From the NCBI GenBank assembly GCA_027624955.1, contig JAQBTG010000002.1, positions 24,694 to 88,693 of the forward strand: 64,000 bases of DNA, written 5' to 3'. The position numbers and the translations under genes are program-made. The notes under the pieces are model-generated. The model saw only the letters and a program-made list of their open reading frames with translations. It searched no databases and was not told the DNA's origin. The DNA is from Pseudomonadota bacterium (GTDB lineage: Bacteria > Pseudomonadota > Alphaproteobacteria > UBA828). Below, one piece after another: positions 1,041-58,278 of the stretch (positions are counted from its first letter, which is position 1; each line of letters opens with the position of its first letter).

Positions 1041-1120
1041 GTCAGGCCCCAGGTCCTTGGACTTGTCAGGCCCCAGGTCTTTGGACTTATCAGGCCCCAG
1101 GTCTTTGGACTTATCAGGCC
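1041..1120. repeat. Perfect/near-perfect 24-bp tandem repeat, 3.3 copies (gtcaggccccaggtcYttggactt), in the intergenic region between the hyuB-like stop and the SDIMO alpha start.
   Basis: Units lie at 1041-1064, 1065-1088 and 1089-1112, with a partial unit at 1113-1120 that overlaps the hyuB-like stop codon. The spurious plus ORF 970-1239 reads SGPRSLDL x3 across it. Confidence 0.9.
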
Positions 1121-2961
1121 AATGCCGCGAGGCGGGATTGGCGGAGTTTGGTGGTGGCGCTGATGTCGACAGCGAGATCGTCGCGCGCCGGCGAGCCGGT
1201 GATGATCACGCCATAGACCGCTTCGGCCTTGGCGCGTGAGACATAGCGCTCCTGCACATCGTTGAGAACACGTTCGGTCTCGCGCGTCAGGGGGTCGCCG
1301 TAGCCGCCACCGCCATTGTCGACGGCGCGTAATCTATCGCCCGGCGAGAGATGGCAATAGGCATCGGTGGAATAAAACTCCTCGCTGCCGTCGGCGGCAA
1401 TCTTCATTTGGATGGCGGGCTGCGACGGCAAGCCGCCGAGCACGCCCTGCGGCACATTTTCCAAGCCGTTGGCGATATTGATGATCAGCATGGGTTCGAT
1501 GCGCGGCCCCATGATCACTTCCGACGCCGGGCCGCCGCGCCGCCGTCCGGCGCCGCATGAATCCTCCAGCGCGCGCACGCTTTCAACCTGGAACGGAAAG
1601 CGCTGTTCGTTGACCTCGATGCTGTCGCGGTAGACCAGCCCGGCGCTGACCGGATTGACCATGCCGTGCATGCCGTCATTGCGCGCTGAGGCGGGCATGC
1701 CGCCGGCCGACATGAACATCTGGTTCACATAGGGTGCGCCGCCGTTGCGCCAATCCTTGCCCGAGCACACGCCCGTGCCGGCGCCGTTGCACATATTGCC
1801 CTGGCTGAAGCCATAGCCGTCGCCGAGCTGAGCGAAGCCGGCCTGAATGGTATTGATGATGGTATCGGTCATATTGGTGGTGGCGACCGAGCAGCTATGC
1901 GGAAAGCGCGGAATGCCGGTGACGCAATTTTCGCGCAGCAGAATATCCAGCCGCCGGAAGCTGCCGGAATTGTGCGGAATGTCGGGATCGAGGCAGCAGA
2001 ACACCGCTTGCGCCGCCGACATGGTGGAGGTCGCCTCGGTCAGATTTAGTCCGGCATCGACGGAATCCGGATTGTCGCGCAGATCCACCTTGATCCGGCC
2101 GTCGGTGCTGTCGATATCGATAGCGACTTTGATCTGAATGCCGTCCGGCAGAAACGGCATGATCGGATCATGCACGCCGGTGGCGGAGATGGTGCCACCC
2201 GGCAGAGCGCGGATCGCCTCGGCCGTCCGTCGCTCGGAATAATCGAACCAGTCGGCGACGAATTTGCGCGTCATGGCCTTGCCGTATTTGCCGATGAACT
2301 CCTTCAGCCGGCGCTCGCCGATGCGGGCCGCGCCCATCGCCGCGAGATAATCGCCATACCATTGATCAGGCACGCGGATGCGCCGGCGGCACATGCGGAT
2401 GATATCCTGGTTGTCCTCATAATCGCTTTGCACCTGCACACAGGGAAAGATCAGCGCGCCTTCTTGATAGACGTCCTTGGCGGCGGCGAAATAGGTCGTC
2501 GGCTGGCTATTGCCGCAATCGGCCTGATGCGCCTTGACCGCCGCCGTAAAGAAATGCTCGCCCTCAAAAAATACCGGAATGAGAAAGGTATGATCCGCGG
2601 GGTGGCTGTTGCCGACATAGGGATCATTGTCGAGAAAGGCATCGCCCTCGCGAAAATCCGGATGATATTTCGCCATCGAGGCGGTTTGCAGATGCATGCC
2701 AAACACATGAATCGGCATCGCCTCGGCGACCGCCAGAACCTCGTCATCCGAGGTGATAATCGCGCAGGAAAAATCGCGCGCGATGCCGATCACCGCCGAG
2801 CGGGCGGAGAACAACACGGTGTTGGTCATCTCACGGCAGATCGCGTCCATGCGGTTGGCCATGATGGCGAGCAGCACAGAGTCGAACTGGCCGTCCTGGT
2901 CCGCCTGGCTCGTCTGGTCCGTCCCTGTACCGGACGCGGGATTGTTCTTGGATATAGCCAT
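1114..2961 (-). CDS. Hydantoinase B / 5-oxoprolinase family protein (HyuB-like, ATP-dependent amidohydrolase beta subunit).
   Basis: A 615-aa ORF with typical HyuB architecture and length. A GGGGAG RBS sits before the ATG, and the gene lies 12 bp downstream of the hyuA-like gene, so the two are translationally coupled. Confidence 0.85.
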   Translation of the reverse strand: MAISKNNPASGTGTDQTSQADQDGQFDSVLLAIMANRMDAICREMTNTVLFSARSAVIGIARDFSCAIITSDDEVLAVAEAMPIHVFGMHLQTASMAKYHPDFREGDAFLDNDPYVGNSHPADHTFLIPVFFEGEHFFTAAVKAHQADCGNSQPTTYFAAAKDVYQEGALIFPCVQVQSDYEDNQDIIRMCRRRIRVPDQWYGDYLAAMGAARIGERRLKEFIGKYGKAMTRKFVADWFDYSERRTAEAIRALPGGTISATGVHDPIMPFLPDGIQIKVAIDIDSTDGRIKVDLRDNPDSVDAGLNLTEATSTMSAAQAVFCCLDPDIPHNSGSFRRLDILLRENCVTGIPRFPHSCSVATTNMTDTIINTIQAGFAQLGDGYGFSQGNMCNGAGTGVCSGKDWRNGGAPYVNQMFMSAGGMPASARNDGMHGMVNPVSAGLVYRDSIEVNEQRFPFQVESVRALEDSCGAGRRRGGPASEVIMGPRIEPMLIINIANGLENVPQGVLGGLPSQPAIQMKIAADGSEEFYSTDAYCHLSPGDRLRAVDNGGGGYGDPLTRETERVLNDVQERYVSRAKAEAVYGVIITGSPARDDLAVDISATTKLRQSRLAALA

Positions 2962-2973
2962 ATTTAAGCTCCC

Positions 2974-5064
2974 CTACGCCTTGCTCTCGGTTTCTGTTTC
3001 CAACATATAATTCCGCCGCGCCGTCACCCGTGCGGTGGCGCCGGGATAGACGACGATGGTGGTGGTTGGCTCCTCAATAATTGCCGGGCCAGCGATCACA
3101 GCGCCGGGGCTGAGGTCCGTGCCGACATAGACCGGCGCGTCGAGGGCGTCGTCGCCGCCGAAATAGGTTTTCGAAACACGCCTGGCTTCGGGCGCCTTTA
3201 ATTCGCCCGCCGCTTCTTCCGGCAAATTCGGCTTGTCGAGGATCGCGGTCAGCCGGCCCTTCCAATTGACGCATTCGATGGCGCCGCCTTCTTCTTTCAT
3301 GGCGTAGCGGCGGAAATGCACATCGTGGAACGCCTGCACCAAAACCTCTACATCGGCGGCGCTTTTGACCGTCTCCAGCGGCATGGCGAATTCCATTTCC
3401 CACTGTTGATTGATGTAGCGCGCCTCGACAAAATATTCGCTTTTGAACTGGTTGATGCCGCGCTCGCGCAATTCTTCGCTGAAGGCCTCGATCTGCTGGG
3501 TGATGCCGCCGAGCGCGCGATCGACGCCGGCGAAATCGAAATTTCCCGAATGGGCGTATTGGCTGGCGCTGAATTCGGCGACGATGTTGGAATATTGCCC
3601 ACCGCAGGCGCTAAGCGCCCCAGCGGTGCGCGGCACCAGCACTTTGGCGCAGCCGAGTGCCTTGGCGATGGGCAGAATATTGAGACCGGCAGCGCCGCCG
3701 CCGGCGACGAGAATGCTCTCCGCCGGGTTAACACCGTCCTGCACGGTGATTTCCTGAATCGCCTTGATCATCTGCTCACCGGCGATGGTGATGATGGCAA
3801 AGGCCGCCTGCTCAACGCTCAACTTGCTCTGATCGGCAATTGCCGAAACAGCCTTGCGCGCCGCCGCCACATCGAGCGCCATGCGCCCGCCGAGAAAGAA
3901 ATGCGGATCGATATAGCCGAGCACCACGGCGGCATCGGTGACCGTCGCTTCGGTGCCGCCGCGGCCGTAACAGGCCGGGCCGGGCATCGCGCCGGCACTC
4001 TTGGGGCCGACCCGGAGCAGGCCGCCTGAATCGATCCAGGCGATGGAGCCGCCGCCGGCGCCGACGCTCCGCACATCGACCGAGGAGAGGCCGAGATTGT
4101 GGCCGATCCATTCGCCGAGCAACCACGTCTCGCGGGTGAATTTGATTTGCCCGGCGCGCACCATGCTGACGTCGAACGTCGTGCCGCCGGTGTCGACGAT
4201 GATGACGTCGTTGCCTTCGCCTTCCGCCTCGGCATAAGCGATGCCCGCCAGGGGCGCCATGGCCGGCCCCGATTTAACCGTGTAGATCGGCTTCTCAACC
4301 ACATCTTTGACATGCATAACGCCGCCCGAGCACGCGCTCACCAGGATTTCGCCCTGATAGTTGGCCGCGCGCAGATCGCTCTCAAAGCCAGAAAGATGGT
4401 GCTGCATGAGCGGCTTTAGCGAGGCATCGATGGCGGTGGAGGAGGTGCGCGGATATTCGCGGATGATCGGATTGAGCTGATGCGACAGCGTGTAGGGAAT
4501 GCCCGGCAGGATCTCTGCAATCAATTCGCCAAGGCGCTTTTCATGCGCCGAATTGACGATCGACCAAAGCAGGCTCACCGCGACGGCCTCGATATTCATG
4601 TTCGCCAGGCCGGCGATGGTGGCGCGCGCCGCCGCTTCGTCGAGCGCTGTCTCGACGCCGCCTTCGGCATTGATGCGCTCGGGAATTTCGAAGGTGAGGC
4701 GGCGCGGCACGTAGGGCGGTGGAAACTCAATCACAATATTGAGCGGCTCGCGCTTGCCGCCTTGGCGGTACAGCAGAATGTCGGGGAAGCCTTCGGTCAC
4801 GAGGAGGGCGGTCTTGGCGGTCTTTTTTTCCACGATGGAATTGGTCGAGCGCGTGGTGCCGTATATCAAAACTTCAGTCTCGCCCAGTAGAGTCACCACC
4901 GGAACACCGATGATTTCCGCCGCATTGGTCAACGCGGCGGAAAAGCCGTCATAGCTGCGTTCGGGTGTGGTCAGCGCCTTGCCGACCACCAAATGCCCTT
5001 GTGCATCTGCAACGACGACATCGGTGAAGGTGCCGCCAGTATCGACGGCAATGCGATAGCCCAT
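2974..5064 (-). CDS. Hydantoinase A / oxoprolinase family protein (HyuA-like). The start is probably the internal Met giving MGYRIAVDTGGTFTD (5064); the longest ORF extends to 5106.
   Basis: The N-terminal DxGGTFTD ATPase motif is present (RIAVDTGGTFTDVVV). Length is about 697 aa, and it forms a pair with the downstream HyuB-like gene. Confidence 0.85.
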   Translation of the reverse strand: MGYRIAVDTGGTFTDVVVADAQGHLVVGKALTTPERSYDGFSAALTNAAEIIGVPVVTLLGETEVLIYGTTRSTNSIVEKKTAKTALLVTEGFPDILLYRQGGKREPLNIVIEFPPPYVPRRLTFEIPERINAEGGVETALDEAAARATIAGLANMNIEAVAVSLLWSIVNSAHEKRLGELIAEILPGIPYTLSHQLNPIIREYPRTSSTAIDASLKPLMQHHLSGFESDLRAANYQGEILVSACSGGVMHVKDVVEKPIYTVKSGPAMAPLAGIAYAEAEGEGNDVIIVDTGGTTFDVSMVRAGQIKFTRETWLLGEWIGHNLGLSSVDVRSVGAGGGSIAWIDSGGLLRVGPKSAGAMPGPACYGRGGTEATVTDAAVVLGYIDPHFFLGGRMALDVAAARKAVSAIADQSKLSVEQAAFAIITIAGEQMIKAIQEITVQDGVNPAESILVAGGGAAGLNILPIAKALGCAKVLVPRTAGALSACGGQYSNIVAEFSASQYAHSGNFDFAGVDRALGGITQQIEAFSEELRERGINQFKSEYFVEARYINQQWEMEFAMPLETVKSAADVEVLVQAFHDVHFRRYAMKEEGGAIECVNWKGRLTAILDKPNLPEEAAGELKAPEARRVSKTYFGGDDALDAPVYVGTDLSPGAVIAGPAIIEEPTTTIVVYPGATARVTARRNYMLETETESKA

Positions 5065-5368
5065 TCCTGCTCTCCCGATTTCTTCATATTTGGCCGTGCG
5101 TACCACGCATTTTTAAGATGCTCGACGACCTTGTCCTTGGATTCGATCTTGCGCGAATTGGAGGCGGCGATCAAATACTCAAGCGCGTCTTTGGCAAAAC
5201 AGTCGAAATTATTTTTCGCCGCGCCGACGTCTAGGCTCCTCAGCCGCACGCCATCCTGTGACCAGGCCGTTTTTTGCGCTCGATCTCCAGCCAGCCAATA
5301 TTTTTAAAGCCTTGTTGGTGGCGGCCAGCTAACGTAGCAGCCCTCTGGATTGGGAAGGCGGCAAAATT

Positions 5369-6118
5369 ATGTTGAAGGATCGCGTGGGACTGGTGACGGG
5401 TGGTGCGTCCGGAATTGGGCGGGCGACGGTACTGGCCATGGCTGCGGCGGGGGCCAAGGTTCTCGTCGCCGATATCGATGAAGCGGGCGGTGAAGCGGTG
5501 GCGCGCGAAGTAACGGAGGCCGGTGGCGTCGCCGAGTTTCTGCGCGCCGATGTGTCTAACGCGGCAGATGTGAACGCCATGGTGGCGCGCGCATTGAGCG
5601 CCTTTGGCAGGCTCGATGCCGCCGTCAACAATGCCGGCCTCGAGGGCCCTGAGGCGCCGGTACAGGGACAGGACATGGCGCAGGTGCAGCGCGTGTTCGA
5701 TATCATGATTAACGGCGTCTATCTCGCCATGCAGGCTGAGATACCGGCCATGCTGGCTGGCGGCGGTGGCGCCATCGTCAATATGAGTTCGATTTGGGGC
5801 TTGTTCGGCTACGCCGATTGGTCGCCCTATATCACCGCAAAGCACGCGGTTTCCGGCATGACCAAAGCGGTGGCGCTTGAAGTCGCGGCCCAAGGCATCC
5901 GCATCAATGCGGTTGCCCCCGGACCGATCCACACGCCGCTCCTGCTGCGCCTGTGGGATAACGATCTCTCTGGGTCGGCGGCACGCGTGCCGATGCGCCG
6001 CATCGGCCAGCCCGAGGAGGTTGCCAATGCGGTCGTCTGGTTGCTTTCAGATCAATCCAGTTTCATCACCGGCCATATCCTGCCGATCGATGGCGGCATG
6101 CTGGCCGAGAAGGGCTGA
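5369..6118 (+). CDS. SDR family NAD(P)-dependent oxidoreductase.
   Basis: It carries TGGASGIGRA (the Rossmann TGxxxGxG motif), NNAG, and the catalytic S...YxxxK (YITAKH). It is paralogous to the SDR at 33551-34303. Confidence 0.9.
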   Translation: MLKDRVGLVTGGASGIGRATVLAMAAAGAKVLVADIDEAGGEAVAREVTEAGGVAEFLRADVSNAADVNAMVARALSAFGRLDAAVNNAGLEGPEAPVQGQDMAQVQRVFDIMINGVYLAMQAEIPAMLAGGGGAIVNMSSIWGLFGYADWSPYITAKHAVSGMTKAVALEVAAQGIRINAVAPGPIHTPLLLRLWDNDLSGSAARVPMRRIGQPEEVANAVVWLLSDQSSFITGHILPIDGGMLAEKG

Positions 6119-6414
6119 CCCGCGCTGCGTTGTGGGCCGAGCTGCGTTTGATCGTGCTCGGCGGCGAAGATGTTGGCGGGCTTCGTCACAGACTCGTTTA
6201 ACTGCCCGCCCGCACGCTAGATGATCGATCGTGGGAAGCGAGGGCTTCGACAGCTGCTCGCATTCATCCGGCCAGTTTAACCGGATCGGCGCCGCTGGGG
6301 CACTCGCGTTTGCGACAAAGCCTTATATAAAACCGGGGCTTACACTCCAGTAACGCTTGCTCCGACAGCGCCAAATCTGTCGCCGCACGAGCTGGCGATG
6401 CGCCCGACAGATTC

Positions 6415-6472
6415 AGAAGGCGCCTTCGTCTTGGAGGCCGTTGCATTGAAAACGTTGAGGTGGCTTCTGTAG
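6415..6472. repeat. Copy A of an imperfect ~58-bp direct repeat; copy B is at 11941-11998. The core is ggaggccgNtgcattgaaaacgttgNNgtggcttctg.
   Basis: By-eye alignment gives about 83% identity over ~58 bp, with a near-perfect 28-bp core. The two copies flank the lower-GC nhaA-nhaR-hflK'-kef block. Confidence 0.7.
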
Positions 6473-6736
6473 GCTTCACTTCTTGCCATGATGAAAAACG
6501 CCAACACACGCGTATTTGATGGCCGGTGCAAGTACATGGCGCCTGTGTTTATGCAAAGCTTCGATGCCATTATTGGCTATCAGAATCTCGCATTCATTTT
6601 CCAGCAACCGGATGTTGAGACCGCCTTTAAGTTAATCGTCTTGAACAACTAGAACTTTCTTCATAGCCTTACTTTCCACCCGAGGGAACGCATCCGATTG
6701 TCCCCCAGGTCATTAACTCCATCCGCGATCCAGAAT

Positions 6737-8137
6737 CTAGTCTTCCGCCTCTCCTGGCCTGCTAACTAGGTAGAGCCAAATGAATCCAGCCACGCCCGCC
6801 AGCAGGGAAGCGGCAATAATGCCCGTCTTGGCCACCAGCAACAAATCATTGCGCTCGCCAAAACCGAGCTGAGCGACAAATATGGACATGGTGAATCCGA
6901 TCCCGGCCAGCAACGACACACCAGCGATCTGGGTGAACCGCGTATTTTTCGGTAGTTCGGCCACACCCAGCTTCAGCACCAGCCAACTTGCCCCAGTGAT
7001 GCCAATGAACTTGCCCACCACTAGACCGAGCGACACACCGTGCATCACCGGATTGGTCAAAATTTCACCCAGCGAACCAGAAGATAGCGGAATGCCGGCG
7101 TTGGCCAAGGCGAAGATTGGAATTACGAAGTAGGCCACCGGCATATGCCAGGTATGCTCCAATCGCTGCAACGGGGCTTCAACGCTGTGCACACTGTTTT
7201 TCAAGGCCTGTACGACGGCACGCAACTCGATATTGGTCATGATGCTTTTCCCAGGTTTGTGGCTGGCATCAAAACGCCTTATGAGTTCTTTGACGTGCTC
7301 ACTGAAACGTGTCGGGTCGTACTTTGGTATCGCTGGGACCGATAGCGCTCCCAATATGCCAGCCAGAGTGGCGTGCACACCTGATTGCTGCATGGCGTAC
7401 CACATCAACACCGCGACAATAAAATAGGGCATGGTATTGCGGATGCCGACCAGATTGAAAGCCAGCAGCAAAGCGAAGAGACCGCCGCAGAGCGCTAGGG
7501 GACCAAACGCAATGGTGTCGGTATAGAATAACGCAATCACCATCACGGCACCCAGATCGTCTACAATCGCCAGAGCGACCAGAAAGGTGATCAAGGCCTT
7601 GGGCACCCGGCTTGCCAGCAAAGCCAGGGCACCAACTGCGAAAGCGATGTCGGTGGCCATGGGTATCCCCCATCCAGCCGCCGCGTCGCCTTGTGGGTTG
7701 AAGGCAAAATATATCAAGGCAGGCACAACCATGCCGCCAATTGCCGCCGCAATCGGCAGGATGGCATTTCGTAGTTTCGCCAGTTCTCCTACCAGCAACT
7801 CACGTTTAAGTTCCAATCCGACGACAAAGAAAAATAGCGCCATTAGGCCATCATTGATCCAATGGTGCAGGGTCATTTCCAGCGCCCAACTGCCGATGTC
7901 GAGGCTGATTAGGGTATGTACGACATGCTCATAGACGGAAGCCAACGGTCCGTTGGCCAGTACCAACGCGACGATTGCCATACACATCAGCAGTAAGCCG
8001 CTCGTGGTCTGGCGGTGAATAAACTCTTCAAACGGCGTGAGGATTTTGCCGAAACTTTTTTCCCAGGGAGCGTAATAAACGCCTCTTTTCATTTTGGGAA
8101 TACGGTTTGCTCCTGTGTTTTTATTTTTCATCACCAA
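6737..8137 (-). CDS. nhaA: Na+/H+ antiporter NhaA. The start could alternatively be the Met at 8092.
   Basis: The NhaA signature region HWINDGLMALFFFVVGLELKRE and a 12-TM-type hydrophobic profile are present. It lies immediately downstream of nhaR. Confidence 0.9.
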   Translation of the reverse strand: MVMKNKNTGANRIPKMKRGVYYAPWEKSFGKILTPFEEFIHRQTTSGLLLMCMAIVALVLANGPLASVYEHVVHTLISLDIGSWALEMTLHHWINDGLMALFFFVVGLELKRELLVGELAKLRNAILPIAAAIGGMVVPALIYFAFNPQGDAAAGWGIPMATDIAFAVGALALLASRVPKALITFLVALAIVDDLGAVMVIALFYTDTIAFGPLALCGGLFALLLAFNLVGIRNTMPYFIVAVLMWYAMQQSGVHATLAGILGALSVPAIPKYDPTRFSEHVKELIRRFDASHKPGKSIMTNIELRAVVQALKNSVHSVEAPLQRLEHTWHMPVAYFVIPIFALANAGIPLSSGSLGEILTNPVMHGVSLGLVVGKFIGITGASWLVLKLGVAELPKNTRFTQIAGVSLLAGIGFTMSIFVAQLGFGERNDLLLVAKTGIIAASLLAGVAGFIWLYLVSRPGEAED

Positions 8138-9023
8138 ACAGCGACTGACGAGCTGCCTCCACTATGGCGGAGACGACTGGGTGCTTGACTTGGCGCTCGA
8201 CGGAGATGGCGTAGAAATGCGCTTTCACCTCATTGACCCGGCCAATCACAGTCACCTGATACTGCCTCTCCACCTCTGCCTCGATAACAGCGGGCGCTAT
8301 GAAGATCCCGACACCTTCTTGCCCAAAAGCCTTCATCAGCGCGCTGTCATCAAACTCGGCAATTCTTTGCGGGTAGATGCGATGTTTGTTCAGCCACTGA
8401 TCAATACTGGAACGCAGTTGATTGCCGGTACTCGGAAACAGTAGCGGTGCGCCTTCCAGACACTGGGGAAAATCACCAATTAGCTTCTTTTTCAGTTTCG
8501 CTGTGGCAAAGAAGCTGACCGCGCTCTCGCCAAGTTTATGACTAAAACTTCGCGTGCTGACCGTGGGAGGAACAGGACTGTCGGCCAGTACCAAGTCAAG
8601 GCGGTGCACGGACAATTCTGCCAGCAAAGTATCGAGACCCGTCTCGCGGCAAATCATGCGTACTGGGTCCGGCATCCGCAGCGCAGGCTGAAGAATTCGA
8701 TGGGCGATGGACTTGGATAGCACGTCGACAACACCAACCCGAAACAATTGGGGGCGGTCGTCAGGCAGCCGATGAATCGTATTTTCCAACTCACCGCCCA
8801 GCGAGAAGATCTCATCAGCATAGCTCAATACAAGTTGCCCGGTCTCAGTGAGCTCCAAATTGCGGCCGACCCGGGAGAACAGTTTCACTCCCAGATGCTC
8901 CTCCAGCAAACTCAGTTGCCCGCTGATCGTTTGCGGTGTCAGGTTTAGCCGTTCACTGGCCCTAGAGACGCCGCCCTCCCTAGCTACCGACCAGAAATAA
9001 TGTAGATGCTTGTAGTTGATCAT
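8121..9023 (-). CDS. nhaR: LysR-family transcriptional activator NhaR. The start is probably the Met giving MINYKHLHYFW (9023); the longest ORF extends to 9089.
   Basis: The N-terminal MINYKHLHYFWSVAREGGVSRASERLNLTPQTISGQLSLLEEHLGVKLF resembles, by recall, E. coli NhaR (INYNHLYYFWHV...LTPQTITGQI). Its stop is adjacent to or overlaps the nhaA start. Confidence 0.85.
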   Translation of the reverse strand: MINYKHLHYFWSVAREGGVSRASERLNLTPQTISGQLSLLEEHLGVKLFSRVGRNLELTETGQLVLSYADEIFSLGGELENTIHRLPDDRPQLFRVGVVDVLSKSIAHRILQPALRMPDPVRMICRETGLDTLLAELSVHRLDLVLADSPVPPTVSTRSFSHKLGESAVSFFATAKLKKKLIGDFPQCLEGAPLLFPSTGNQLRSSIDQWLNKHRIYPQRIAEFDDSALMKAFGQEGVGIFIAPAVIEAEVERQYQVTVIGRVNEVKAHFYAISVERQVKHPVVSAIVEAARQSLFGDEK

Positions 9024-9052
9024 CGGAATACCATAGTTCGATAAATACGAAT

Positions 9053-9075
9053 AATACGTCATATATATTCGTATT
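9053..9075. promoter_or_regulatory. Candidate LysR-type operator (a T-N11-A-style palindrome, AATACG-N11-CGTATT) immediately upstream of the likely nhaR start.
   Basis: An inverted repeat aatacg tcatatatatt cgtatt lies in an AT-rich tract 30-50 bp upstream of the Met at 9023. Confidence 0.4.
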
Positions 9076-9410
9076 TTATTGAATTTCAAGGATGGCCACC
9101 ATAGTTGTTGTTGAAACTACAACGACAATGCAGCGGAGGGGTTGATACGGGCTGACGTCACCCCGGACATCTTTTGTCTGATCCCATTCAATGCGCAGTC
9201 ATGCCTAAAGTTGGCGGCGTACTTATTTCCAATATTGGCGATCACATTCAACGATTGCCTGCGAGGAAATCTCGTTTCGGCGCAGGCCGAGAACATTGTC
9301 GATAAGGTAAGATGATAGGGAAAATGCATCCGCATGACGGGAATTTTGGAAAAACGGGGCATGGTAAAGCCACGAATTATTTATAACTTGAGAGACGAAT
9401 AAACTGTTAC

Positions 9411-9656
9411 GTGGTCGGACCAACGTGGTGGCAACGGCAACGGCCCCTGGGGAATTTCCCAGTTGGGTCACGCCGTGGTGAGGGCGGTCGCGGCTCCGGC
9501 GGCGGTGGCCGACGACCAAATGGCGGTGGCGGACCGCAACCGCCTGACTTAGAAGAGGTGTTGCGACGCGGTCAAGACAAGGCGCGGCGCTGGATGCCCT
9601 CTATTCGGGGGCCGCGCGGCGTCATTATCTTAATTCTTGTCGCCATTCTATCGGAC
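9411..9656 (+). pseudogene. hflK: Truncated 5' fragment of hflK (about the first 82 codons: Gly-rich N-terminus, PPDLEE(V/L)LRRGQD motif, start of the TM helix), then non-homologous sequence and a stop.
   Basis: The translation ...GGGGRRPNGGGGPQPPDLEEVLRRGQDKARRWMPSIRGPRGVIILILVAIL resembles the HflK N-terminal region. The SPFH/band-7 domain that should follow is absent, and the ORF ends at 9722 after an unrelated tail. Confidence 0.6.
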
Positions 9657-9784
9657 GATTGCGAGGTAAATCGATTCCAATACCAGAGTCAATTTAGCGA
9701 TTATTTGGAAAAGAACTGCTGAGCGGGAGCGTGCGGCTCGGTGCGCCGTCGCGGCCGAGGAGATGCCCAGGGGGGCTAGATTCG

Positions 9785-11506
9785 ATGGATATTCCAGAGA
9801 CCCATCTTGACGAACTGCTCTTTGCCCTAGTGATCATCCTGGGGGCCAGCGCGGGCGCCATGGCTATCGCGAAGCGCTTCCGCTTAAGCCCTGTGATTGG
9901 ATTGTTCGCGACGGGGTTCGTTGTCGGGCCGTCGGTCCTGGGCATTACCCAAAACGTGAGCCAGCTTCGCGAGATTGCCGAGTTCGGCGTGGTGTTGCTT
10001 CTGTTCGTGGTCGGACTTGAGATGGCTCCGCGCAAATTGTGGGCGATGCGCACCCGGGTTTTCGGGTTGGGCTCGCTTCAAGTGGCGGTAAGCGGCGCGC
10101 TCCTGTTCGGCTTTCTCGTCGCCACCGCGCTGCCGTGGAACGTGGCGCTAGTCGTTGGCCTGGCGCTCGCACTGTCGTCTACAGCATTCGTCGCGCAGAT
10201 TCTTTCCGAGCGGGCCGAGCTGAACACCGAGACGGGGCGGACTAGCATTTCGATCCTCATCTTACAGGATATGGCGGTCGTTCCCTTGCTGGCGATGGTT
10301 CCGCTCATTTCGGAGGGCGCGCCGCAGATCGCGGGCGAGCCAATCTGGCTGCGCGCGTTGATGATCATCGGCGTCATAGCCATCGTGCTGCTGATCGGGC
10401 GCTTCGTCTTGCCGGTCTTGCTCACTTGGACGGCGAAGCGGCGCTTCATGGACGTGTTCGCCGTGCTCTCAATGCTTGCGATGTTAGCCAGCGCCTGGGC
10501 GATGGAGTTCACGGGGTTGTCCATGGCGCTCGGCGCCTTTCTCATCGGGGTGACGCTGTCGGTGTCGGATTATCGCCATCAGGTCGAGGCGGCGGTGTTG
10601 CCCTACAAGGGACTACTGCTTGGGCTGTTTTTTCTCTCGGTCGGCATGTCGATCGACATCGCGGTGATAAAGCAGGAGTGGGTGCGGGTGATCTTCAGCG
10701 TACTCGCTGTCATCGGAATCAAGATCGCGGTCCTAATCGTGCTATGCGCTGCATTTCGGGTCTCGCGTCGGGCGACGATCCGCACAGCGTTCCTGCTCTC
10801 GCAAAGCGGCGAGTTTGGTTTCGTGCTACTGGGTTCTGCGCTGGCGAGCGGCCTCGTGGGCGAGGACCAGTTCGCCTTCGCCCTTGTCGTGATTTCTGTG
10901 TCGATGGCGGCGACGCCGGTTTTCGTCAAGCTCGGCAACGCGCTTGCCGACTTACTAGAAAGAGCGGGGCGCACATCTGCCCACTCCACGGCGGCCGACT
11001 GGGGCGAGGAAAAATACGTCGTGGTGACGGGAATTGGCAGGGTGGGGCGGATCGTTTGCGATATGCTCAAGGCTTCTGACATCCCCTACATCGCCTTCGA
11101 TGTCGACATTGAGAAGGTGGTGCGGGAACGGAAGTTGGGCCACCATGTCCGCTTCGGTGACGTCAGCGACCCGCACGTACTGACCTCGGGAGAACTCGCT
11201 CGGGCTGCGGCGGCGGTAGTGACGCTGAACGACAAGCGAGCCTGCGAAAAGGTGGTTAGTGCGCTGCGCAATTTCTATCCAGAAATGCCTGTACATGTGC
11301 GCGTCTATAATTTCGAGGACCGAGACGCGATGCTGGAGCGCGGGGTCGTTTCGGCGATTCCCGAAACCGTGGAAGCGAGCCTCGAGCTCGGCGCGGACCT
11401 TCTGCAGCACCTCGGCATATCCGACTCTGAGGTCCAGGACTTGCTCGGTATATTACGCGCAGATGGCTACGCACGGATCCGTAGCGGCGAGGAGAGGGGG
11501 GGCTGA
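9785..11506 (+). CDS. Monovalent cation:proton antiporter-2 (CPA2) family K+/H+ antiporter with a C-terminal RCK/TrkA-N domain (KefB/KefC-like). The track ORF begins at 9731; the Met at 9785 (MDIPETHL...) is more likely.
   Basis: A ~12-TM Na+/H+-exchanger-type membrane domain is followed by VVTGIGRVGRIVCDMLK, the Rossmann GxGxxG of the RCK domain. Total length is about 573 aa. Confidence 0.85.
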   Translation: MDIPETHLDELLFALVIILGASAGAMAIAKRFRLSPVIGLFATGFVVGPSVLGITQNVSQLREIAEFGVVLLLFVVGLEMAPRKLWAMRTRVFGLGSLQVAVSGALLFGFLVATALPWNVALVVGLALALSSTAFVAQILSERAELNTETGRTSISILILQDMAVVPLLAMVPLISEGAPQIAGEPIWLRALMIIGVIAIVLLIGRFVLPVLLTWTAKRRFMDVFAVLSMLAMLASAWAMEFTGLSMALGAFLIGVTLSVSDYRHQVEAAVLPYKGLLLGLFFLSVGMSIDIAVIKQEWVRVIFSVLAVIGIKIAVLIVLCAAFRVSRRATIRTAFLLSQSGEFGFVLLGSALASGLVGEDQFAFALVVISVSMAATPVFVKLGNALADLLERAGRTSAHSTAADWGEEKYVVVTGIGRVGRIVCDMLKASDIPYIAFDVDIEKVVRERKLGHHVRFGDVSDPHVLTSGELARAAAAVVTLNDKRACEKVVSALRNFYPEMPVHVRVYNFEDRDAMLERGVVSAIPETVEASLELGADLLQHLGISDSEVQDLLGILRADGYARIRSGEERGG

Positions 11507-11940
11507 CGGTATGCGGTGGAACGTCACTCAAATTTGCGGCGGCGGTCGCACCCCAGGGCGCATCCCAGGGCAGCTTGACTGTTTGACCGGTATCGTTAGA
11601 TCGGCTCCTGGTACATCGGAACGACAATTTCCGAGACCATGCGCGGTAGCTCTATGCACCTGCGGGGGTTGTCAGACAAACTGATCTGGCGGATCTCGGC
11701 AGCAAACATCGGATCGTGCCGGCTCCACCAGAACCGCACCGTCTGGTGGCAAATGTCTATCCCACGCTCGAACGGCGGATCCTCAACCTGCCGCTACGAC
11801 AGCGGATAGCTGATGTACATCGTGACCGCGAGGCGGATCACCTTGGGTGAGCTGTCGAAATAGCGGAACGGATTTGCCGTCCGCCCGGGCTATGCGTCGC
11901 CCACGCCGCCATCAAGCCGGTTTGGTCCGACAGAGCCCAT

Positions 11941-11998
11941 AGAAGGCCACCTGATCTCGGAGGCCGCTGCATTGAAAACGTTGCTGTGGCTTCTGCCG
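11941..11998. repeat. Copy B of the ~58-bp direct repeat (see 6415-6472). It overlaps the annotated GTG start of the fused oxoprolinase-like ORF.
   Basis: The sequence agaaggccacctgatctcggaggccgctgcattgaaaacgttgctgtggcttctg aligns with copy A. Confidence 0.7.
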
Positions 11999-14900
11999 CT
12001 GCCGGCACTTATATTGTGGTCGCTGTCAGCCATTTTGTGGCCTATTTGGGCAACGGCAATTTCGGAGTGTTACGACGTGGGCGAACGAACGGTGATGTTG
12101 CTGTGATTCTCGGCGTAGACGTTGGCGGCACCTTCACCGACCTGCTGCTTGCCGATCCCAAGACCGGGCGCTTCGAGATTGCCAAGGTGCCCTCTACGCC
12201 AGCCGATCAGTCGGACGGGTTCATGGCCGGCATCCAGGCGCTCGGCGCCGATCCGAGCACACTCGATTCAATCATTCACGGCACGACCGTGGGCACCAAT
12301 GCGGTGCTTGAACGGAAGGGCGTGCGCTGCGGGCTGATCACCACGCGCGGCTTTCGCGACACGCTGGAGCTTGGCCGGCGCACGCGGCCCAACCCTTGGG
12401 GCATGACCGGCCATTTCGAGCCGCTCGTGCCGCGCGACCGCCGGATTGAGGTGAGCGAGCGCATCGACGCCTCGGGCCGCGTGGTGACAGTGCTCGCAGA
12501 AGACGAGGTGCGCGAAGCCGTGGAGACGCTGCGCGAAGCCGGCGCGGAAGCGCTCATCATCCATTTCATTCACTCCTACCTCAATCAGGACCACGAGCGC
12601 CGCGCCGGTGAAATCGCGCGCGAAACCTGGACCAACGGGCATATCACGCTGGGCTCTGAGGTCTTGCGCGAAGTACGCGAGTTCGAGCGCGGCAGCACGG
12701 CGGCGCTCAACGGCTATATCCAGCCCATCATGACGCGCTATCTCGGCCATCTCCAACAGCGTCTGCGCGATGCCGCGTTTGGCCATGAATTGCTCGTGAT
12801 GCAGGGCAATGGCGGCATGATGAGCGCTGCGACCGCTGGTGAAAAAGCGGTTCATACCGTGATGTCGGGTCCGGCCGCGGGTGCAATTGCCGCGGCGCAT
12901 CTCGGCAGCGCCGCGGGCTTTCCGAACGTGATCAGCTGCGACATGGGTGGCACCAGCTTCGACATCGCCATCGTAAAAAACGGCGTGCCAACGACCACGA
13001 CCGAGAAGGACATCAGCTACGGCATGCCGCTCCGCGTGCCGATGGTCGATATCCAGACCATCGGGGCAGGCGGCGGCAGCATTGCCCGCGTTGATACCGG
13101 CGGCATCCTTCGCGTCGGGCCGGAAAGCGCGGGCGCGACACCCGGCCCGATCTGCTACGGGCGGGGCGGCACCGAGCCCACCGTGACCGATGCCAACCTC
13201 CTGCTCGGGCGGATCGACCCGGATACGATCGCGGGCCTCAATACCGGCCTTGGCGCAGACGCGGTGCGGCGTGCCATTGCCGAGAAGATCGGCAAACCGC
13301 TGGGGCTCGACGCCACCGAGGCGGCAGCGGCGATCATCCGCGTGGTCGATCATCAGATGGCGGGTGCGGCCAGGCTGGTCTCGGTCGACAAGGGAAACGA
13401 CCCACGAGAGTTCGCGCTGTTCGCATTCGGTGGCGCGGGTCCGATGCACGCGACGGCGATCGCGCGCGAGCTCGGCGTGCCGCATGTGGTGGTGCCGCGC
13501 TATCCCGGCATCACCTCGGCGCTCGGCTGTGTGCTCGCCGATGTCCGCCATGATTTCGTGCAGACCCTGCACACACCGCTCGAAGACGTGGATGTTGACG
13601 AGGCGGACCGCATTCTTGCCGACCAAGCTCACGAAGGGCGCGAGGTATTGGCGCGCGAGGGCGTGGCGGTCACGGCGGTCGAGGTCAGCCACGAGGCCGA
13701 TCTCTTCTATCGCGGCCAAAGCCATATGTTCCGCGTCGCGGTTGAGAGCCCGGGCTTCTCACTGGATGCAACGCGCGAGCGCTTCGCCGATCTCTACCGC
13801 GAGCGCTTCGATATTCTTTTGCCTGAGATGCAGCCGATCCTGGTGAGCCTCCGGACCACGATTCGCGGCGTCCGCACCTCGCCCGAGCTCACCTTCACGC
13901 CGAGCGCTGCTAAGAACGATCTGGCGGCCGCGCGAATCTCAACCCGCCCGGTCTTTTTCGATGGCGCTTGGCACGAGACGCCGATCTATGAACGCGAGCG
14001 CCTGCCGGCGGAAGCTGAGATCACCGGCCCCGCCGTTATCCAGCAGCTCGATACCACCATCCTCATTGAGCCGGGTTCGACCACGCGCATCGACCGCGCG
14101 GGCAACCTGATCGTCGAGGTGCCGCAAGCCGCCGCACAGAAGATCGCTGGGGCGCTAGATGCCGTGACCCTCGCGGTTATTCAAAGCGGTCTCGAACAAG
14201 TTGCGAGCGAGATGGACCTGGTTCACCAGCGCACCTCGTTCTCGCCGGTGATCTCCGAGGCCTACGACCGATCGAACGGGATTTACGACGCCGTAACCGG
14301 CGACATCATTGCCCAGGGCGAACTTGGGCTGCCGATCTTCCTTGGCGTCATGCAATCGACGACACAAGCCGTGATCGCCGAGCGCAAGGATTTGGAGCCC
14401 GGTGACATCATCCTGATCAACGATCCGTATAAGGGCGGCACGCATCTGATGGACGTCAAGATGGTGCGCCCTTTCTACTATAAAGGCAGGCACTGGGCGT
14501 ATCTCTCCAACACGGGGCATTGGCCCGACACTGGCGGCATGGTGCCGGGCGGCTTCTCCTCCGAGGCCACTGAGATCCAGCAGGAAGGCCTGCGTCTGCC
14601 CCCGGTAAAACTTTATCGGCGCGGCGTGATCGACCAGGACATCTTGCAAATCGTGCTGGCAAACATCCGCGTGCCAGACGAACGTGTCGGCGACATCCGC
14701 GCCCAGGTGGGCGCTCTTTCGGTCGGCGAAAAACGGCTTACGGCACTGCTCGACAAATACGGCGAAGCTACAGTCAGCGCAGCCATCGAGGCGCTCAAGG
14801 ACCGCTCCGAACAGCGCATGCGCGCGCATATCGAGACCATCCCCGACGGCGCATATGTTTTTTCCAGTTATATGGACAGCGACGGTGTCGATGACGCGCC

Positions 14901-15840
14901 GCTTGAAGTGCGCGTCAACACGACCGTCAAAGGCAGCGACATCCACGTCGATTTCTCGGGCTCCAGCCCGCCTTGCCGCGGGCCTGTCAACTCGGTTTGG
15001 GCGACCACGCTGGCCTCGGTCTATTGCGCGGTTAAGCACATCTTCCCCGACGTGCCGATCAACGCCGGCTGCTTCCGGCCGATCGCCGTCACCCCACCGC
15101 ATGACACGTTTCTCTATGCGACCTATCCGCGCCCGGTTTCGGGCTGCGCCGCCGAGACCGCACAGCGCATCATGGAAGCCGTGTTCGGCGCCTTGGGCCA
15201 GGCAATCCCGGAACGCATGTTCGCCGCACCCGCCGGTACCAGCGGCAATTTCAGCTTGGGCGGCGAAGACCCCGACGAAGGGCGCCGCTACGTCATGTAC
15301 ATCTTCTCGGGCGGCGGCTACGGCGGCTGGTGGGAGACCGACGGCCTGACCAACGGCTGCTCCTCTGTCGGCATCTCCAAAACCCAGCCGGCCGAGATAT
15401 TGGAGCAGCATTACCCGATCCTGTTCGAGGAATATGCGCTCCGCGAAGGCTCGGGCGGCGCCGGGCGGCATCGCGGCGGCTTCGGCGTCAACTACCGGGT
15501 CCGCCTGTTGCGGGGCGAGGCGAAAGCCTCGTTTATGATGGATCATGGGCGCATCGGTCCGCCCGGCTTGGGTGGCGGCCTGGCGGGTGCGGTGAACGAA
15601 ATAGAGATCACGCGCGGCGGTAATACCGAGCGGCCACCGCATCTCTCCAAGGGTGAGGGCTATGCGCTTCGTCCCGGCGACGTGGTGCAGGTACGCACAC
15701 CGGGCGGCGGCGGTTACGGCGATCCGCACGCCAGGCAACGTTCGAGGGTGGTTGAGGATCTTCGCCGGAATTACCTTAGCGCCGAGGATGCGGTGCGCGA
15801 CTACGCCTTCGATCTCACTGCAGACGAAGCCGCCGAGTAA
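11986..15840 (+). CDS. Fused hydantoinase A + hydantoinase B protein (5-oxoprolinase OplA-like, ATP-hydrolysing). The true start may be the GTG near 12103, just before VILGVDVGGTFTD.
   Basis: A 1284-aa ORF. The N-terminal half has the HyuA DVGGTFTD motif. The C-terminal half from about aa 730 is HyuB-like (AVTLAVIQSGLEQVASEMDLV...). The only in-frame ATG/GTG upstream of the motif is the GTG at 11986. Confidence 0.85.
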   Translation: MASAAAGTYIVVAVSHFVAYLGNGNFGVLRRGRTNGDVAVILGVDVGGTFTDLLLADPKTGRFEIAKVPSTPADQSDGFMAGIQALGADPSTLDSIIHGTTVGTNAVLERKGVRCGLITTRGFRDTLELGRRTRPNPWGMTGHFEPLVPRDRRIEVSERIDASGRVVTVLAEDEVREAVETLREAGAEALIIHFIHSYLNQDHERRAGEIARETWTNGHITLGSEVLREVREFERGSTAALNGYIQPIMTRYLGHLQQRLRDAAFGHELLVMQGNGGMMSAATAGEKAVHTVMSGPAAGAIAAAHLGSAAGFPNVISCDMGGTSFDIAIVKNGVPTTTTEKDISYGMPLRVPMVDIQTIGAGGGSIARVDTGGILRVGPESAGATPGPICYGRGGTEPTVTDANLLLGRIDPDTIAGLNTGLGADAVRRAIAEKIGKPLGLDATEAAAAIIRVVDHQMAGAARLVSVDKGNDPREFALFAFGGAGPMHATAIARELGVPHVVVPRYPGITSALGCVLADVRHDFVQTLHTPLEDVDVDEADRILADQAHEGREVLAREGVAVTAVEVSHEADLFYRGQSHMFRVAVESPGFSLDATRERFADLYRERFDILLPEMQPILVSLRTTIRGVRTSPELTFTPSAAKNDLAAARISTRPVFFDGAWHETPIYERERLPAEAEITGPAVIQQLDTTILIEPGSTTRIDRAGNLIVEVPQAAAQKIAGALDAVTLAVIQSGLEQVASEMDLVHQRTSFSPVISEAYDRSNGIYDAVTGDIIAQGELGLPIFLGVMQSTTQAVIAERKDLEPGDIILINDPYKGGTHLMDVKMVRPFYYKGRHWAYLSNTGHWPDTGGMVPGGFSSEATEIQQEGLRLPPVKLYRRGVIDQDILQIVLANIRVPDERVGDIRAQVGALSVGEKRLTALLDKYGEATVSAAIEALKDRSEQRMRAHIETIPDGAYVFSSYMDSDGVDDAPLEVRVNTTVKGSDIHVDFSGSSPPCRGPVNSVWATTLASVYCAVKHIFPDVPINAGCFRPIAVTPPHDTFLYATYPRPVSGCAAETAQRIMEAVFGALGQAIPERMFAAPAGTSGNFSLGGEDPDEGRRYVMYIFSGGGYGGWWETDGLTNGCSSVGISKTQPAEILEQHYPILFEEYALREGSGGAGRHRGGFGVNYRVRLLRGEAKASFMMDHGRIGPPGLGGGLAGAVNEIEITRGGNTERPPHLSKGEGYALRPGDVVQVRTPGGGGYGDPHARQRSRVVEDLRRNYLSAEDAVRDYAFDLTADEAAE

Positions 15841-18168: not shown

Positions 18169-19968
18169 ATGGCTGGCAACCCCCAGATTGAGAGTGAGGG
18201 CTATACCCTAGAGCCGATGATGCTCGCCGTGCTATCGCGGCGCTTCGAGGCGATCTGCCGCGAGATGACCAACGGCATTTTGAAGGCCAGCCGTTCTGCC
18301 GTGATCAAAAACGCGCGCGATTTCTCGGTCGGCATCCTGACCCACGATCATCGATTGATCAGCGTTGAGGACGGCCTGCCGATCCACATCACCGCCCTCG
18401 ACCTCACCACGCGCGCGATCGATCGCCTGTTCGACGATATTGGAGAGGGTGACGCTTTTCTTAACAACTGCCCCTATTACGGCGCGACGCATCACGCCGA
18501 TCTCGATGTCATCGTGCCGGTGTATTTCGAGGGGCGTATCATGTTCTGGGCGCTCGTGCGTTGCCATCATGCCGACATGGGCGCGCCGCTGCCGACGACC
18601 TATTTGCCGCATGCTGCGACGATTTATGAGGAAGGTCTGCATTTCCCCGGCGTGCGCGTGGAGGAGGGCTACAAATCCAAGGCCGATATCCTGCGTATCG
18701 GATTGACTAAGATTCGCGCGAGCAAGATCTGGCTGGGCGATTATCGGGCGCAGCTTGGCGCCTGCCGCATCGGCGAGCAGCGCTTGAAGGAGCTGGTCGA
18801 GCGCCACGGTAGTACGATGATCGAGGACTTTATCGAAGACTGGATAACCTATGGCGAGCGCCGCACCAAAGCCGCCATCGCCAGTTTGCCGGCGGGCACC
18901 TGGTCATACGCGACAAAGCATGATCCGGTGCCGGGTGTGGCGGAAGACGGCATTCCGGTGCGCGTCACGGTTACGGTCGACCCTGAAGCCGGCGAGGTCA
19001 CGGTCGATGCCCGCGACAATATCGATTGTGTGCCGGGCGGGCTCAACCTGTCCGAGGCAACGGCCACCGCGTCCTGCCGCATCGGCGTGTTCGTCAATCT
19101 CGACCCTTCGATCCCGCACAACGAAGGCAGCGCCCGCTGTATCAACGTGCTATTGCGCGACGGCTGCGTCGTCGGCCGCCCGGCCTATCCCGTCGGCACC
19201 TCGGTCGCGACGACCAACGTCAACGACCGCTTGATCAACGCGGTGGCGTGCTGCTTCGCTCAGATGGGCAGCCCGCACGGCATTGCCGAAGGCGGCGGCA
19301 TGATGGCGAGCGGGCTGGCGGTGATTTCCGGCGACGATCCGTTGCGCGGCGGGCGCGCCTATGTGAACCAGCTTTTCGTTGGCTATTCGGGCGGGCCCGG
19401 CATCCACGGCCATGACGGCTGGCTCACCTATAACGACGCCGACACCTGCGGCATGCTGATGCTTGATTCGGTCGAGGTCGACGAAGGCATGTATCCGATT
19501 TTGATCGAGGAGCGCGGGGTGGCGCCCGACACCATGGGGCATGGCCGCTGGGACGGGGCGCCGGCGATGACCGGTATCTACGGGCCGCTCGCCGCTGAAA
19601 TGACAGCGATCTATTGCAGCGACGGCGATGTGGCGGCGGCACGCGGCGTGCTCGGCGGTCATGACGGCGCGCCTTCGTGCAACTGGAAGCGCGACGGTGC
19701 GGGCGGCTGGACAGAGATGCCGAGCTTCCATACCGAAATCTGCCAGCCGGGCGAGGCGCTGCGTTTCCTGGCAGGTGGCGGTGGCGGTTACGGCAACCCA
19801 AAGGAGCGCGCGCCCGAACGCGTGGTCGAGACGGTCAATCGCGGCTGGCTCTCAGCCGAGCGCGCCGAGGCGACCTACGCGGTCAAGCTCCGAATATCTG
19901 AGGACGGCCTCGATTACGTACTCGATGACACCGCGACGGCTCAACTGCGCACCAGCAACGGCGACTGA
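18169..19968 (+). CDS. Hydantoinase B / oxoprolinase family protein (second HyuB-like paralogue).
   Basis: A 599-aa ORF that is clearly paralogous to the 1114-2961 product, with the same block order (e.g. ICREMTN, GDAFLNN.PY). Its start lies 9 bp after the BKACE stop. Confidence 0.85.
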   Translation: MAGNPQIESEGYTLEPMMLAVLSRRFEAICREMTNGILKASRSAVIKNARDFSVGILTHDHRLISVEDGLPIHITALDLTTRAIDRLFDDIGEGDAFLNNCPYYGATHHADLDVIVPVYFEGRIMFWALVRCHHADMGAPLPTTYLPHAATIYEEGLHFPGVRVEEGYKSKADILRIGLTKIRASKIWLGDYRAQLGACRIGEQRLKELVERHGSTMIEDFIEDWITYGERRTKAAIASLPAGTWSYATKHDPVPGVAEDGIPVRVTVTVDPEAGEVTVDARDNIDCVPGGLNLSEATATASCRIGVFVNLDPSIPHNEGSARCINVLLRDGCVVGRPAYPVGTSVATTNVNDRLINAVACCFAQMGSPHGIAEGGGMMASGLAVISGDDPLRGGRAYVNQLFVGYSGGPGIHGHDGWLTYNDADTCGMLMLDSVEVDEGMYPILIEERGVAPDTMGHGRWDGAPAMTGIYGPLAAEMTAIYCSDGDVAAARGVLGGHDGAPSCNWKRDGAGGWTEMPSFHTEICQPGEALRFLAGGGGGYGNPKERAPERVVETVNRGWLSAERAEATYAVKLRISEDGLDYVLDDTATAQLRTSNGD

Positions 19969-19972
19969 GCGC

Positions 19973-57444: not shown

Positions 57445-58278
57445 ATGATGAAACACAGAAAACTGGCCGCCACCACGGTGCTGGCTCTAATGATCGGCGC
57501 GGGAATTTCCACAGCAGCCATGGCCGATACGGCGGTCATCAAAATGAAATTCGATGAAGACAGCGGCGATCTTTATTTTGAGCCGGCCAAGGTCACTATC
57601 AATCCCGGCGATACCGTGGTCTGGCTGCAAGATGATGTCGACAACGAGCACAACGTGGCTGCCTATCCCAACCTCATTCCGGAAGGCGTGCAGCCCTTTG
57701 AAAGTCAGATGATGACGCGGGTAGGCGAAAGCTGGAGCATGACCTTCGACAAGGTAGGCAGCTATTTCTATCACTGCCATCCGCATGAGGCGGCGGGCAT
57801 GAAAGGGCTGATCGTGGTCGGTCGCGAATCTCTGCCGGAGGAATTCCGAAAAGCCAGAGCGGGTGATATGTCGCATGACCATGGCGACGGCGATATGGAC
57901 GACATGAAGCATGGCGATAAGGACGGCATGAAGCATGGCGACAAGGACGGCATGAAGCATGGTGACATGGACGACATGAAGCCTGGCGATAAGGACGGCA
58001 TGAAGCATGGTGACATGGACGGCATGAAGCATGACGACATGGACGGCATGAAGCATGACGACATGGACGGCATGAAGCATGGTGACATGGACGGCATGAA
58101 GCATGACGATAAGGACGGCATGAAGCATGACGACATGGACGGCATGAAGCATGACGACATGGACGGCATGAAGCACGGCGACGATGATGATCATCACCAA
58201 GATGGTGACAAAAAGGAGAACAAGATTATGGAGGATGGGCATGGCCACGATAATGACCATGGCGATCACCACGATTAG
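57445..58278 (+). CDS. Exported type-1 copper (cupredoxin: plastocyanin/pseudoazurin/amicyanin-like) protein with a C-terminal tail of 12 tandem 8-aa DGMKH(G/D)D(M/K) repeats.
   Basis: A signal peptide is present. The cupredoxin ligand pattern His...Cys-x2-His-x4-Met appears in FYHCHPHEAAGMKGLIVV. Residues from about 148 to 250 are a Met/His/Asp repeat array. Confidence 0.75.
   Translation: MMKHRKLAATTVLALMIGAGISTAAMADTAVIKMKFDEDSGDLYFEPAKVTINPGDTVVWLQDDVDNEHNVAAYPNLIPEGVQPFESQMMTRVGESWSMTFDKVGSYFYHCHPHEAAGMKGLIVVGRESLPEEFRKARAGDMSHDHGDGDMDDMKHGDKDGMKHGDKDGMKHGDMDDMKPGDKDGMKHGDMDGMKHDDMDGMKHDDMDGMKHGDMDGMKHDDKDGMKHDDMDGMKHDDMDGMKHGDDDDHHQDGDKKENKIMEDGHGHDNDHGDHHD
57886..58192 (+). repeat. 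24-bp tandem repeat array (about 12 units of gacggcatgaagcatgRcgaYaWg) encoding the DGMKHxDx repeats.
   Basis: Direct inspection shows highly regular 24-nt periodicity. The spurious minus-strand ORFs 57487-58296 and 57771-58169 are its reverse-frame translations (MLHAV / MPSMSSCF repeats). Confidence 0.9.

Follow-up and report, generated by a model that had tools for sequence, protein, structure and literature searches.

Does the plus-strand ORF at positions 9411-9722 (103 codons, GTG start) represent a gene, and, if it does not, how did the beginning of an hflK gene come to lie directly upstream of an antiporter gene? The ORF lies within a stretch of DNA of 64,000 nucleotides, which as a whole is here called the window. 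From the letters of the window, the first-pass annotation had read the ORF as a truncated 5' fragment of hflK, placed a breakpoint at about 9655, and proposed that the present gene order arose by deletion or insertion, with the destruction of a copy that was presumably redundant or itself on acquired DNA.

The hflK-derived segment and its lesions

A tblastn search of the window with HflK N-termini (P0001, P0002 and the HflK proteins of loci L009 and L010) returned the fragment as the sole match, with residues ~20-83 of P0001 aligning to 9459-9647 in the frame of the ORF (E = 4.6e-27) and a second segment, HflK residues 3-18, aligning to 9412-9453 in another frame. With full-length HflK proteins of related metagenome-assembled genomes (MAGs), only residues 1-86 matched in the window. 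When the ORF was searched against 5.8 billion proteins, the best matches were HflK N-termini (P0001, E = 1.7e-20; P0002, E = 3.4e-20), 15 of 18 with domain PF12221; after repair, the fragment shared 73-75% amino acid identity with P0001 and P0002 over 82 residues. At the nucleotide level, blastn against the intact hflK of MAG GCA_027592445.1 gave 79% identity over 237 nt (E = 2e-55). The Pfam model HflK_N (PF12221) scored 21.2 bits on the fragment (E = 2.9e-4), just below its gathering cut-off of 22 bits, and an NCBIfam search of the fragment gave no match. The tblastn matches and amino acid identities show that the fragment has the HflK_N region, with its Gly-rich stretch and PPDLEE.LRRGQD motif, and, judged on sequence comparison, its homology to hflK is far beyond chance. 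In all, 9406-9647 is homologous to the first ~81 hflK codons (~240 bases). The features of the locus are as follows.

6737-8092, minus strand: nhaA (TIGR00773, 396 bits), following nhaR
8121-9062, minus strand: nhaR, encoding a LysR-family activator (NCBIfam NhaR, 276 bits; cut-off 219); left-hand neighbour of the fragment
9351-9405, plus strand: possible remnant of the hflK 5' leader/promoter, from collinear alignment; left edge uncertain (9335-9406)
9406-9411, plus strand: former hflK codons 1-2, GTT ACG as against ATG CCN in intact genes; start codon lost
9411-9722, plus strand: chimeric ORF of 14 out-of-frame codons, ~65 hflK codons and 24 spacer codons
9412-9453, plus strand: hflK codons 3-16 (WSDQRGGNGNGPWG), in the frame of 9412, which differs from that of the listed ORF
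9453-9454, plus strand: frameshift, one base missing (TGGGGA-ATTTCC as against TGGGGACGAACT in intact hflK)
9454-9517, plus strand: Gly-rich part of hflK, about equally diverged from all hflK genes (65-70%)
9518-9647, plus strand: hflK codons for GGGPQPPDLEEVLRRGQDKARRWMPSIRGPRGVIILILVAI, the motif and the first half of the transmembrane helix; probable gene-conversion tract
9647-9650, no strand: deletion junction, joining hflK codon ~81 to the spacer upstream of the CPA2 gene
9650-9784, plus strand: proximal spacer upstream of the CPA2 gene, collinear with 1241-1378 of contig L026 (see below); supplies the tail and stop codon of the ORF
9785-11506, plus strand: gene for a KefB/KefC-like CPA2 cation:proton antiporter, with Na_H_Exchanger and TrkA_N domains (Pfam, NCBIfam)

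Three-frame translation divided the HflK similarity between two frames, the second of which reads ...GGGGPQPPDLEEVLRRGQDKARRWMPSIRGPRGVIILILVAI at 9454-9647 in the frame of the ORF. The start-codon lesion was read from nucleotide alignments with five intact hflK genes (L037, L030, L031, L007 and L008), and because of the loss of one base at 9453/9454 the listed ORF begins out of frame at its GTG. At the other end, hflK homology breaks off at 9647 (...GTC GCC ATT), midway through the transmembrane helix, where intact hflK genes continue with GGN ATC TGG CTG CTN; of the helix, GVIILILVAI(L) is left, whereas the intact genes go on with GIWLLTGFY. The fragment thus has no uninterrupted frame with a start codon, and combines significant homology with the disabling lesions of a pseudogene, namely start-codon loss, frameshift and 3' truncation. 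A Pfam search detected no SPFH/Band_7 domain (PF01145) in it, tblastn with the HflC proteins of L009 and L010 detected no adjacent co-oriented hflC within the 64 kb, and across the whole 64 kb tblastn detected no remnant of the SPFH domain, hflC, apbC, degP, the DUF1015 gene, miaA or thyX.

The left edge of the segment is less sharp. The best local alignments of 9090-9405 with the regions upstream of hflK at the five intact loci were all collinear and fell at 9351-9403, with significance reached only against L031 (z = 4.1; 1 of 500 shuffles), and identity in this part was 58-62%, as compared with 26-31% farther upstream (alignment A5). About 50 nt of the hflK leader has therefore probably been retained; upstream of it lie AT-rich DNA and then the divergent nhaR-nhaA pair. 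Taken together, it is very likely that the stretch from ~9351/9406 to 9647 is the remnant of a second, non-canonical hflK copy, presumably without function.

Most of what the first-pass annotation had recognised at this locus holds, including the truncated hflK 5' fragment, the missing SPFH/band-7 domain and hflC, and the unrelated, AT-richer tail. Its breakpoint corresponds to a real junction, but at 9647 rather than near 9655; its reading of the ORF as an HflK N-terminus applies from 9454 onwards, the first ~14 codons being out of frame and the true N-terminus lying in the frame of 9412; and the CPA2 gene that it placed next does follow, with an ATG at 9785 and a longest ORF from a GTG at 9731. 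It had not noticed the missing base and the loss of the start codon, nor that some of the leader may have been kept and that similarity to the resident gene is mosaic (see below).

An intact hflK-hflC locus and the mosaic identity of the remnant

A scan of GTDB genomes with an alignment of HflK N-termini returned 17 relatives, with the genome of the window not among them, and none of the 17 has genes in common with the window. An intact locus, L037, was found through the HflC homologue P0212, which agrees with the CPA2 protein of the window in source pattern and organism label. It lies on contig JAQCKN010000057.1 of MAG GCA_027592445.1, where hflK (2008-3147) encodes 379 amino acids without interruption and the genes are arranged as apbC (minus strand) / hflK hflC DUF2065 degP DUF1015 miaA ilvBH ilvC, the canonical order of the relatives. 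Contigs with P0212 were also present in ERZ23495042 and SRR2027830, samples that hold the contig of the window. The assignment of this resident hflK to the same genome as the remnant rests on MAG binning and on this co-occurrence. Since an intact hflK-hflC is present elsewhere, the lost copy was redundant, one of the two possibilities that the first-pass annotation had named.

Across the homologous codons 1-81, the resident hflK and the remnant share 79% nucleotide identity overall and 93% over the last 130 nt, and have in common the motif and the start of the transmembrane helix, QPP(D/E)LEEVLRRGQDK.RRWMPSIRGPRGVII.ILVAI. Unlike the resident gene, the remnant has no start codon, is frameshifted and is ~300 codons shorter, having neither the remainder of the transmembrane helix nor the SPFH domain and C-terminal region; none of the canonical neighbours, hflC included, accompanies it. 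The identity to intact hflK loci was distributed unevenly along the remnant.

9335-9405: 58% to L037; 61-62% to L030/L031
9406-9517: 67% to L037; 65-70% to L030/L031
9518-9648: 92.9% (117/126) to L037; 74.6-75.4% to L030/L031

The difference in identity to L037 between the last segment and the first two was significant (Fisher p = 2.3e-9), whereas the control orthologue pair, L037 and L030, was flat over the same segments (p = 0.89). In addition, the 5' part of the remnant contains, within 9454-9517, a 15-nt block that is kept in L030 and L031 but is absent from L037. From these alignments we conclude that the 5' part is old, of about the age of the split between these lineages or older, and the high identity of the 3' half points to a recent common ancestry with the resident hflK, as expected from gene conversion. 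The mosaic (92.9% as against 58-67%) is not accounted for by regional constraint, because the control is flat. The tract is short (~130 nt or more), and conversion would have run from the resident gene into the remnant. Conversion also fits the sister lineage described below, in which the CPA2-linked hflC is 98.5% identical to a canonical hflC. Gene conversion between pseudogene remnants and functional paralogues is a general, well-known phenomenon in bacteria. Like known converting pseudogenes, the remnant is truncated, frameshifted, without a start and patchily near-identical to a functional paralogue in the same genome, and compared with them it shows nothing unusual. It is an ordinary pseudogene of a redundant paralogue.

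Origin of the junction upstream of the CPA2 gene

The CPA2 protein has few relatives, with 81-87% identity (for example, P0020 with 85% and P0021 with 81%), and then none above 50%. A scan of JGI metagenomes with the single CPA2 protein returned nothing, and a scan with an alignment of CPA2 proteins returned a single short contig, L041, on which another gene lies upstream of the CPA2 gene. P0020 is encoded on a 5,319-nt Logan contig of SRR22804947, known from gene calls alone, on which a 68-aa ORF (minus strand), two Band_7 proteins of 323 and 302 aa and the CPA2 gene follow one another, meaning that hflK and hflC lie directly upstream of the CPA2 gene. Sequence from this sister lineage is available in L026 (JGI 3300045738), which carries the last 254 codons of hflC, a spacer of 613 nt and the CPA2 gene, and shares 98.5% identity over 893 nt with L030, a contig with the canonical arrangement apbC/hflK-hflC-DUF2065. 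The two diverge after DUF2065 codon ~17, a point covered by three assemblies. Comparison of L026 ~846-950 with L030 2867-2950 places the truncation of the CPA2-linked DUF2065 after ~17 codons, which marks the right end of the duplicated segment. The hflK-hflC pair of the sister lineage would be a second copy and not the only one, since the ORF 421 nt upstream of it is the 68-aa ORF and not apbC. A tandem or circular unit in the sister lineage was considered, in view of the nhaR 5' end found after its CPA2 gene (see below), and dropped: L026 continues into a different gene, not into hflK, and its antisense ORFs of 67 and 69 aa do not match the 68-aa call.

The window and the sister arrangement have in common the CPA2 orthologue (85% amino acid and 83% nucleotide identity), the proximal spacer of ~135 nt, and hflK-derived DNA that lies upstream in the same orientation. 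In the sister arrangement, however, both Band_7 genes are full ORFs, whereas in the window ~2.3 kb is gone between hflK codon ~81 and the proximal spacer. This length was computed from L030 position 964, L026 position 1240 and an L030-to-L026 offset of 2020, and the missing stretch runs from within hflK through hflC and the DUF2065 stub to ~350 nt into the spacer. The alignment score of the proximal spacer was modest (z = 3.7, reached by 3 of 500 shuffles), and no similarity to window 9650-9784 was seen ahead of the CPA2 gene in either L041 or L029. Given that hflK ends at 9647, that the spacer starts at 9650 and that the sister lineage keeps hflK-hflC, a single deletion of ~2.3 kb explains the junction, as the first-pass annotation had suggested in naming deletion as one source of the gene order. 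By eye, ATCTG[G/A]CTGCT is seen at both ends of the deleted stretch in the parental-type sequences (L037, L030 and L026), making a microhomology-mediated deletion plausible.

One difference is left unexplained by the deletion model. The 5' end of nhaR lies to the left of the remnant in the window but to the right of the CPA2 gene in the sister lineage, so at least one further rearrangement must have occurred. Specifically, L026 3130-3278 matches window 8968-9113 (blastn E = 9e-12), corresponding to antisense nhaR codons ~31-1 plus ~50 nt of upstream sequence; this stub begins 15 nt after the CPA2 stop codon and is followed by a different gene, of which no remnant was found in window 9090-9420. 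The next ORF after the stub (L026 3406-3489) starts with MATGSERRNFGTTLTQTEVDEGLRSYML, a short stretch that we take to resemble the N-terminus of the BI-1/YccA family. In E. coli, YccA is a substrate of FtsH linked to HflKC.

With good confidence, we favour the following model. An ancestor would have carried a ~2.3-kb duplicate of the canonical locus, containing the hflK leader, hflK, hflC and the first ~17 codons of DUF2065, upstream of the gene for the KefB-like CPA2 antiporter; the duplication would have come before the deletion. In one deletion of ~2.3 kb, most of the spacer would then have been lost together with hflC, the DUF2065 stub and all of hflK beyond codon ~81, so that this codon came to lie next to spacer sequence ~135 nt from the antiporter gene. 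What was left of hflK would also have lost its start codon and acquired the 1-base frameshift, and its 3' half may later, or repeatedly, have been overwritten by gene conversion from the resident hflK, while the resident hflK-hflC presumably performs the function from the canonical locus on another contig. The model does not require that the destroyed copy was itself on acquired DNA, nor does it speak against it.

The nearest competitor, which we regard as unlikely, is that a donor in which hflKC adjoined the CPA2 gene passed on the hflK fragment horizontally, either along with that gene or as part of the entire nhaA-nhaR-kefB block, and that the fragment was never a duplicate of the genome's own locus. 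The rarity of the CPA2 gene, with two or three relatives at 81-87% and then none above 50%, its differing contexts in L041 and L029, the lower GC content of nhaA and nhaR (53-54%, as compared with 59% for the window) and the 55-nt direct repeat that brackets the block would all accord with transfer. However, the divergence between the CPA2 genes of the window and L026 (83% nucleotide identity) is about that between the canonical hflC genes of L037 and L030 (77%), which fits co-divergence, the remnant falls in the same HflK clade as the resident hflK, and conversion of the 3' half by the resident gene would still be needed. Slightly less probable again is the insertion, by illegitimate recombination, of a recent partial copy (~300 nt) of the resident hflK upstream of the CPA2 gene, so that a full second hflK-hflC never existed. 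This would account for the 93% identity of the 3' half to the resident gene, but not for a 5' half and leader that are equally far from the resident gene and from the other lineages (58-67%), nor for the 15-nt block that the resident gene lacks, and in the sister lineage a full hflK-hflC occupies the corresponding place upstream of the CPA2 gene, with the proximal spacer in common.

The chimeric ORF, its annotation and the flanking region

Under the model favoured above, the remnant would have no function. We think it improbable that the second hflK-hflC served as the dedicated SPFH partner of a movable ion-homeostasis module (a CPA2 K+/H+ antiporter and NhaA/NhaR) and that its leader and remnant now act as the promoter/5' leader of the CPA2 gene, maintained by conversion; if this were true, the remnant would be co-opted rather than junk. 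A scan for consensus promoters found no promoter-like site, which is weak evidence against expression. A terminator scan found only one weak minus-strand hairpin (9374-9360), at the rate expected by chance, and an Rfam search of 6000-12300 at a permissive threshold found nothing.

As for the ORF itself, its last 24 codons and stop codon are unrelated, AT-richer DNA, and this tail (DDCEVNRFQYQSQFSDYLEKNC) has no homologue among the 5.8 billion proteins, the matches covering at most 39% of the query except for one marginal match (E = 9.5e-3). Gene callers pass over it on five (L001-L005) of the six contigs that carry exactly this CPA2 protein (L001-L006), and on L006 only a 29-codon call lies inside it. 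In the tail search and the gene calls, no conservation of the ORF as a protein was thus seen, and the 103-codon ORF is an accident of these joins. To regard it as a real small gene, whose product would mimic the HflK N-terminus and modulate FtsH/HflKC, we would have to rely on the open frame and its retained PPDLEEVLRRGQD motif; a frame that starts at GTG out of register with hflK, a hydrophobic stretch of ~11 residues, too short to span the membrane, and the tail, gene-call and promoter results make this reading highly improbable. Least probable of all, to the point of being negligible, is an assembly chimera in which reads of hflK were joined to an unrelated contig: two hflK genes in one genome could in principle mislead an assembler, and nothing else was found in its favour, but the six contigs, from different assemblers and at least five samples, are all 100% identical to the window over 9301-9800 (99.9-100% overall), and the remnant differs from the resident gene by the frameshift, indels and 21% of its bases and so could not have been made from reads of that gene. 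The chimera that the first-pass annotation had named as a possible refutation is not what these assemblies contain. The six contigs are two SPIRE/ENA assemblies (MEHR18-1), JAQCKN010000010.1 of MAG GCA_027592445.1, Logan SRR2027830, Logan ERR13319395 and ERZ24794640; the MEHR18-1 label is consistent with sampling of the Caspian Sea in the metagenome project of Mehrshad et al. (BioProject PRJNA279271; PMC9726936), to which these samples would belong.

For annotation, no gene should be called at 9411-9722 and the name HflK should not be given to this ORF; for hflKC, neither absence nor a count of two should be recorded for the organism. The locus provides a clean, datable case of paralogue decay, from duplication through deletion to frameshift, with a gene-conversion tract, in an nhaA-nhaR / hflK' / CPA2 region that has been repeatedly rearranged among related brackish and marine alphaproteobacterial MAGs; beyond annotation, its significance is small.

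Several other features were observed around the block. nhaR lies upstream of nhaA in the same orientation (6737-9062, minus strand), and their longest ORFs overlap by 17 nt; in E. coli, the order is the reverse, nhaA-nhaR. The 55-nt direct repeat, at 6415-6469 and 11941-11995 (84% identity; ~75 nt with looser ends), has only these two copies in the window and brackets the 5.5-kb nhaA-nhaR-hflK'-CPA2 block. Its copies may be the scars of an insertion or have a regulatory role; folding of both copies gave no significant structure, and a PLSDB megablast with 6100-12100 gave no match. An SDR gene lies at 5369-6118, and five hydantoinase/oxoprolinase A or B genes surround the block (1114-5106, 11986-15840 and 18169-22030). 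One of these encodes a 1284-aa A-B fusion, which in L002 (the NCBI MAG) appears to be split, with only a 558-aa Hydantoinase_B call. Just past the end of the Hydantoinase_B gene at 1114-2961 (minus strand), three tandem copies of a 24-nt period (GGACTTGTCAGGCCCCAGGTCTTT...) are present at 1035-1120. The ORF at 57445-58278 (plus strand) opens with what resembles a signal peptide and contains a cupredoxin-like motif, YFYHCHPH, after which come 13 tandem 24-nt (8-aa) repeats (DGMKHGDM / DDMDGMKH); this His/Asp/Met-rich tail looks like a metal-binding region.
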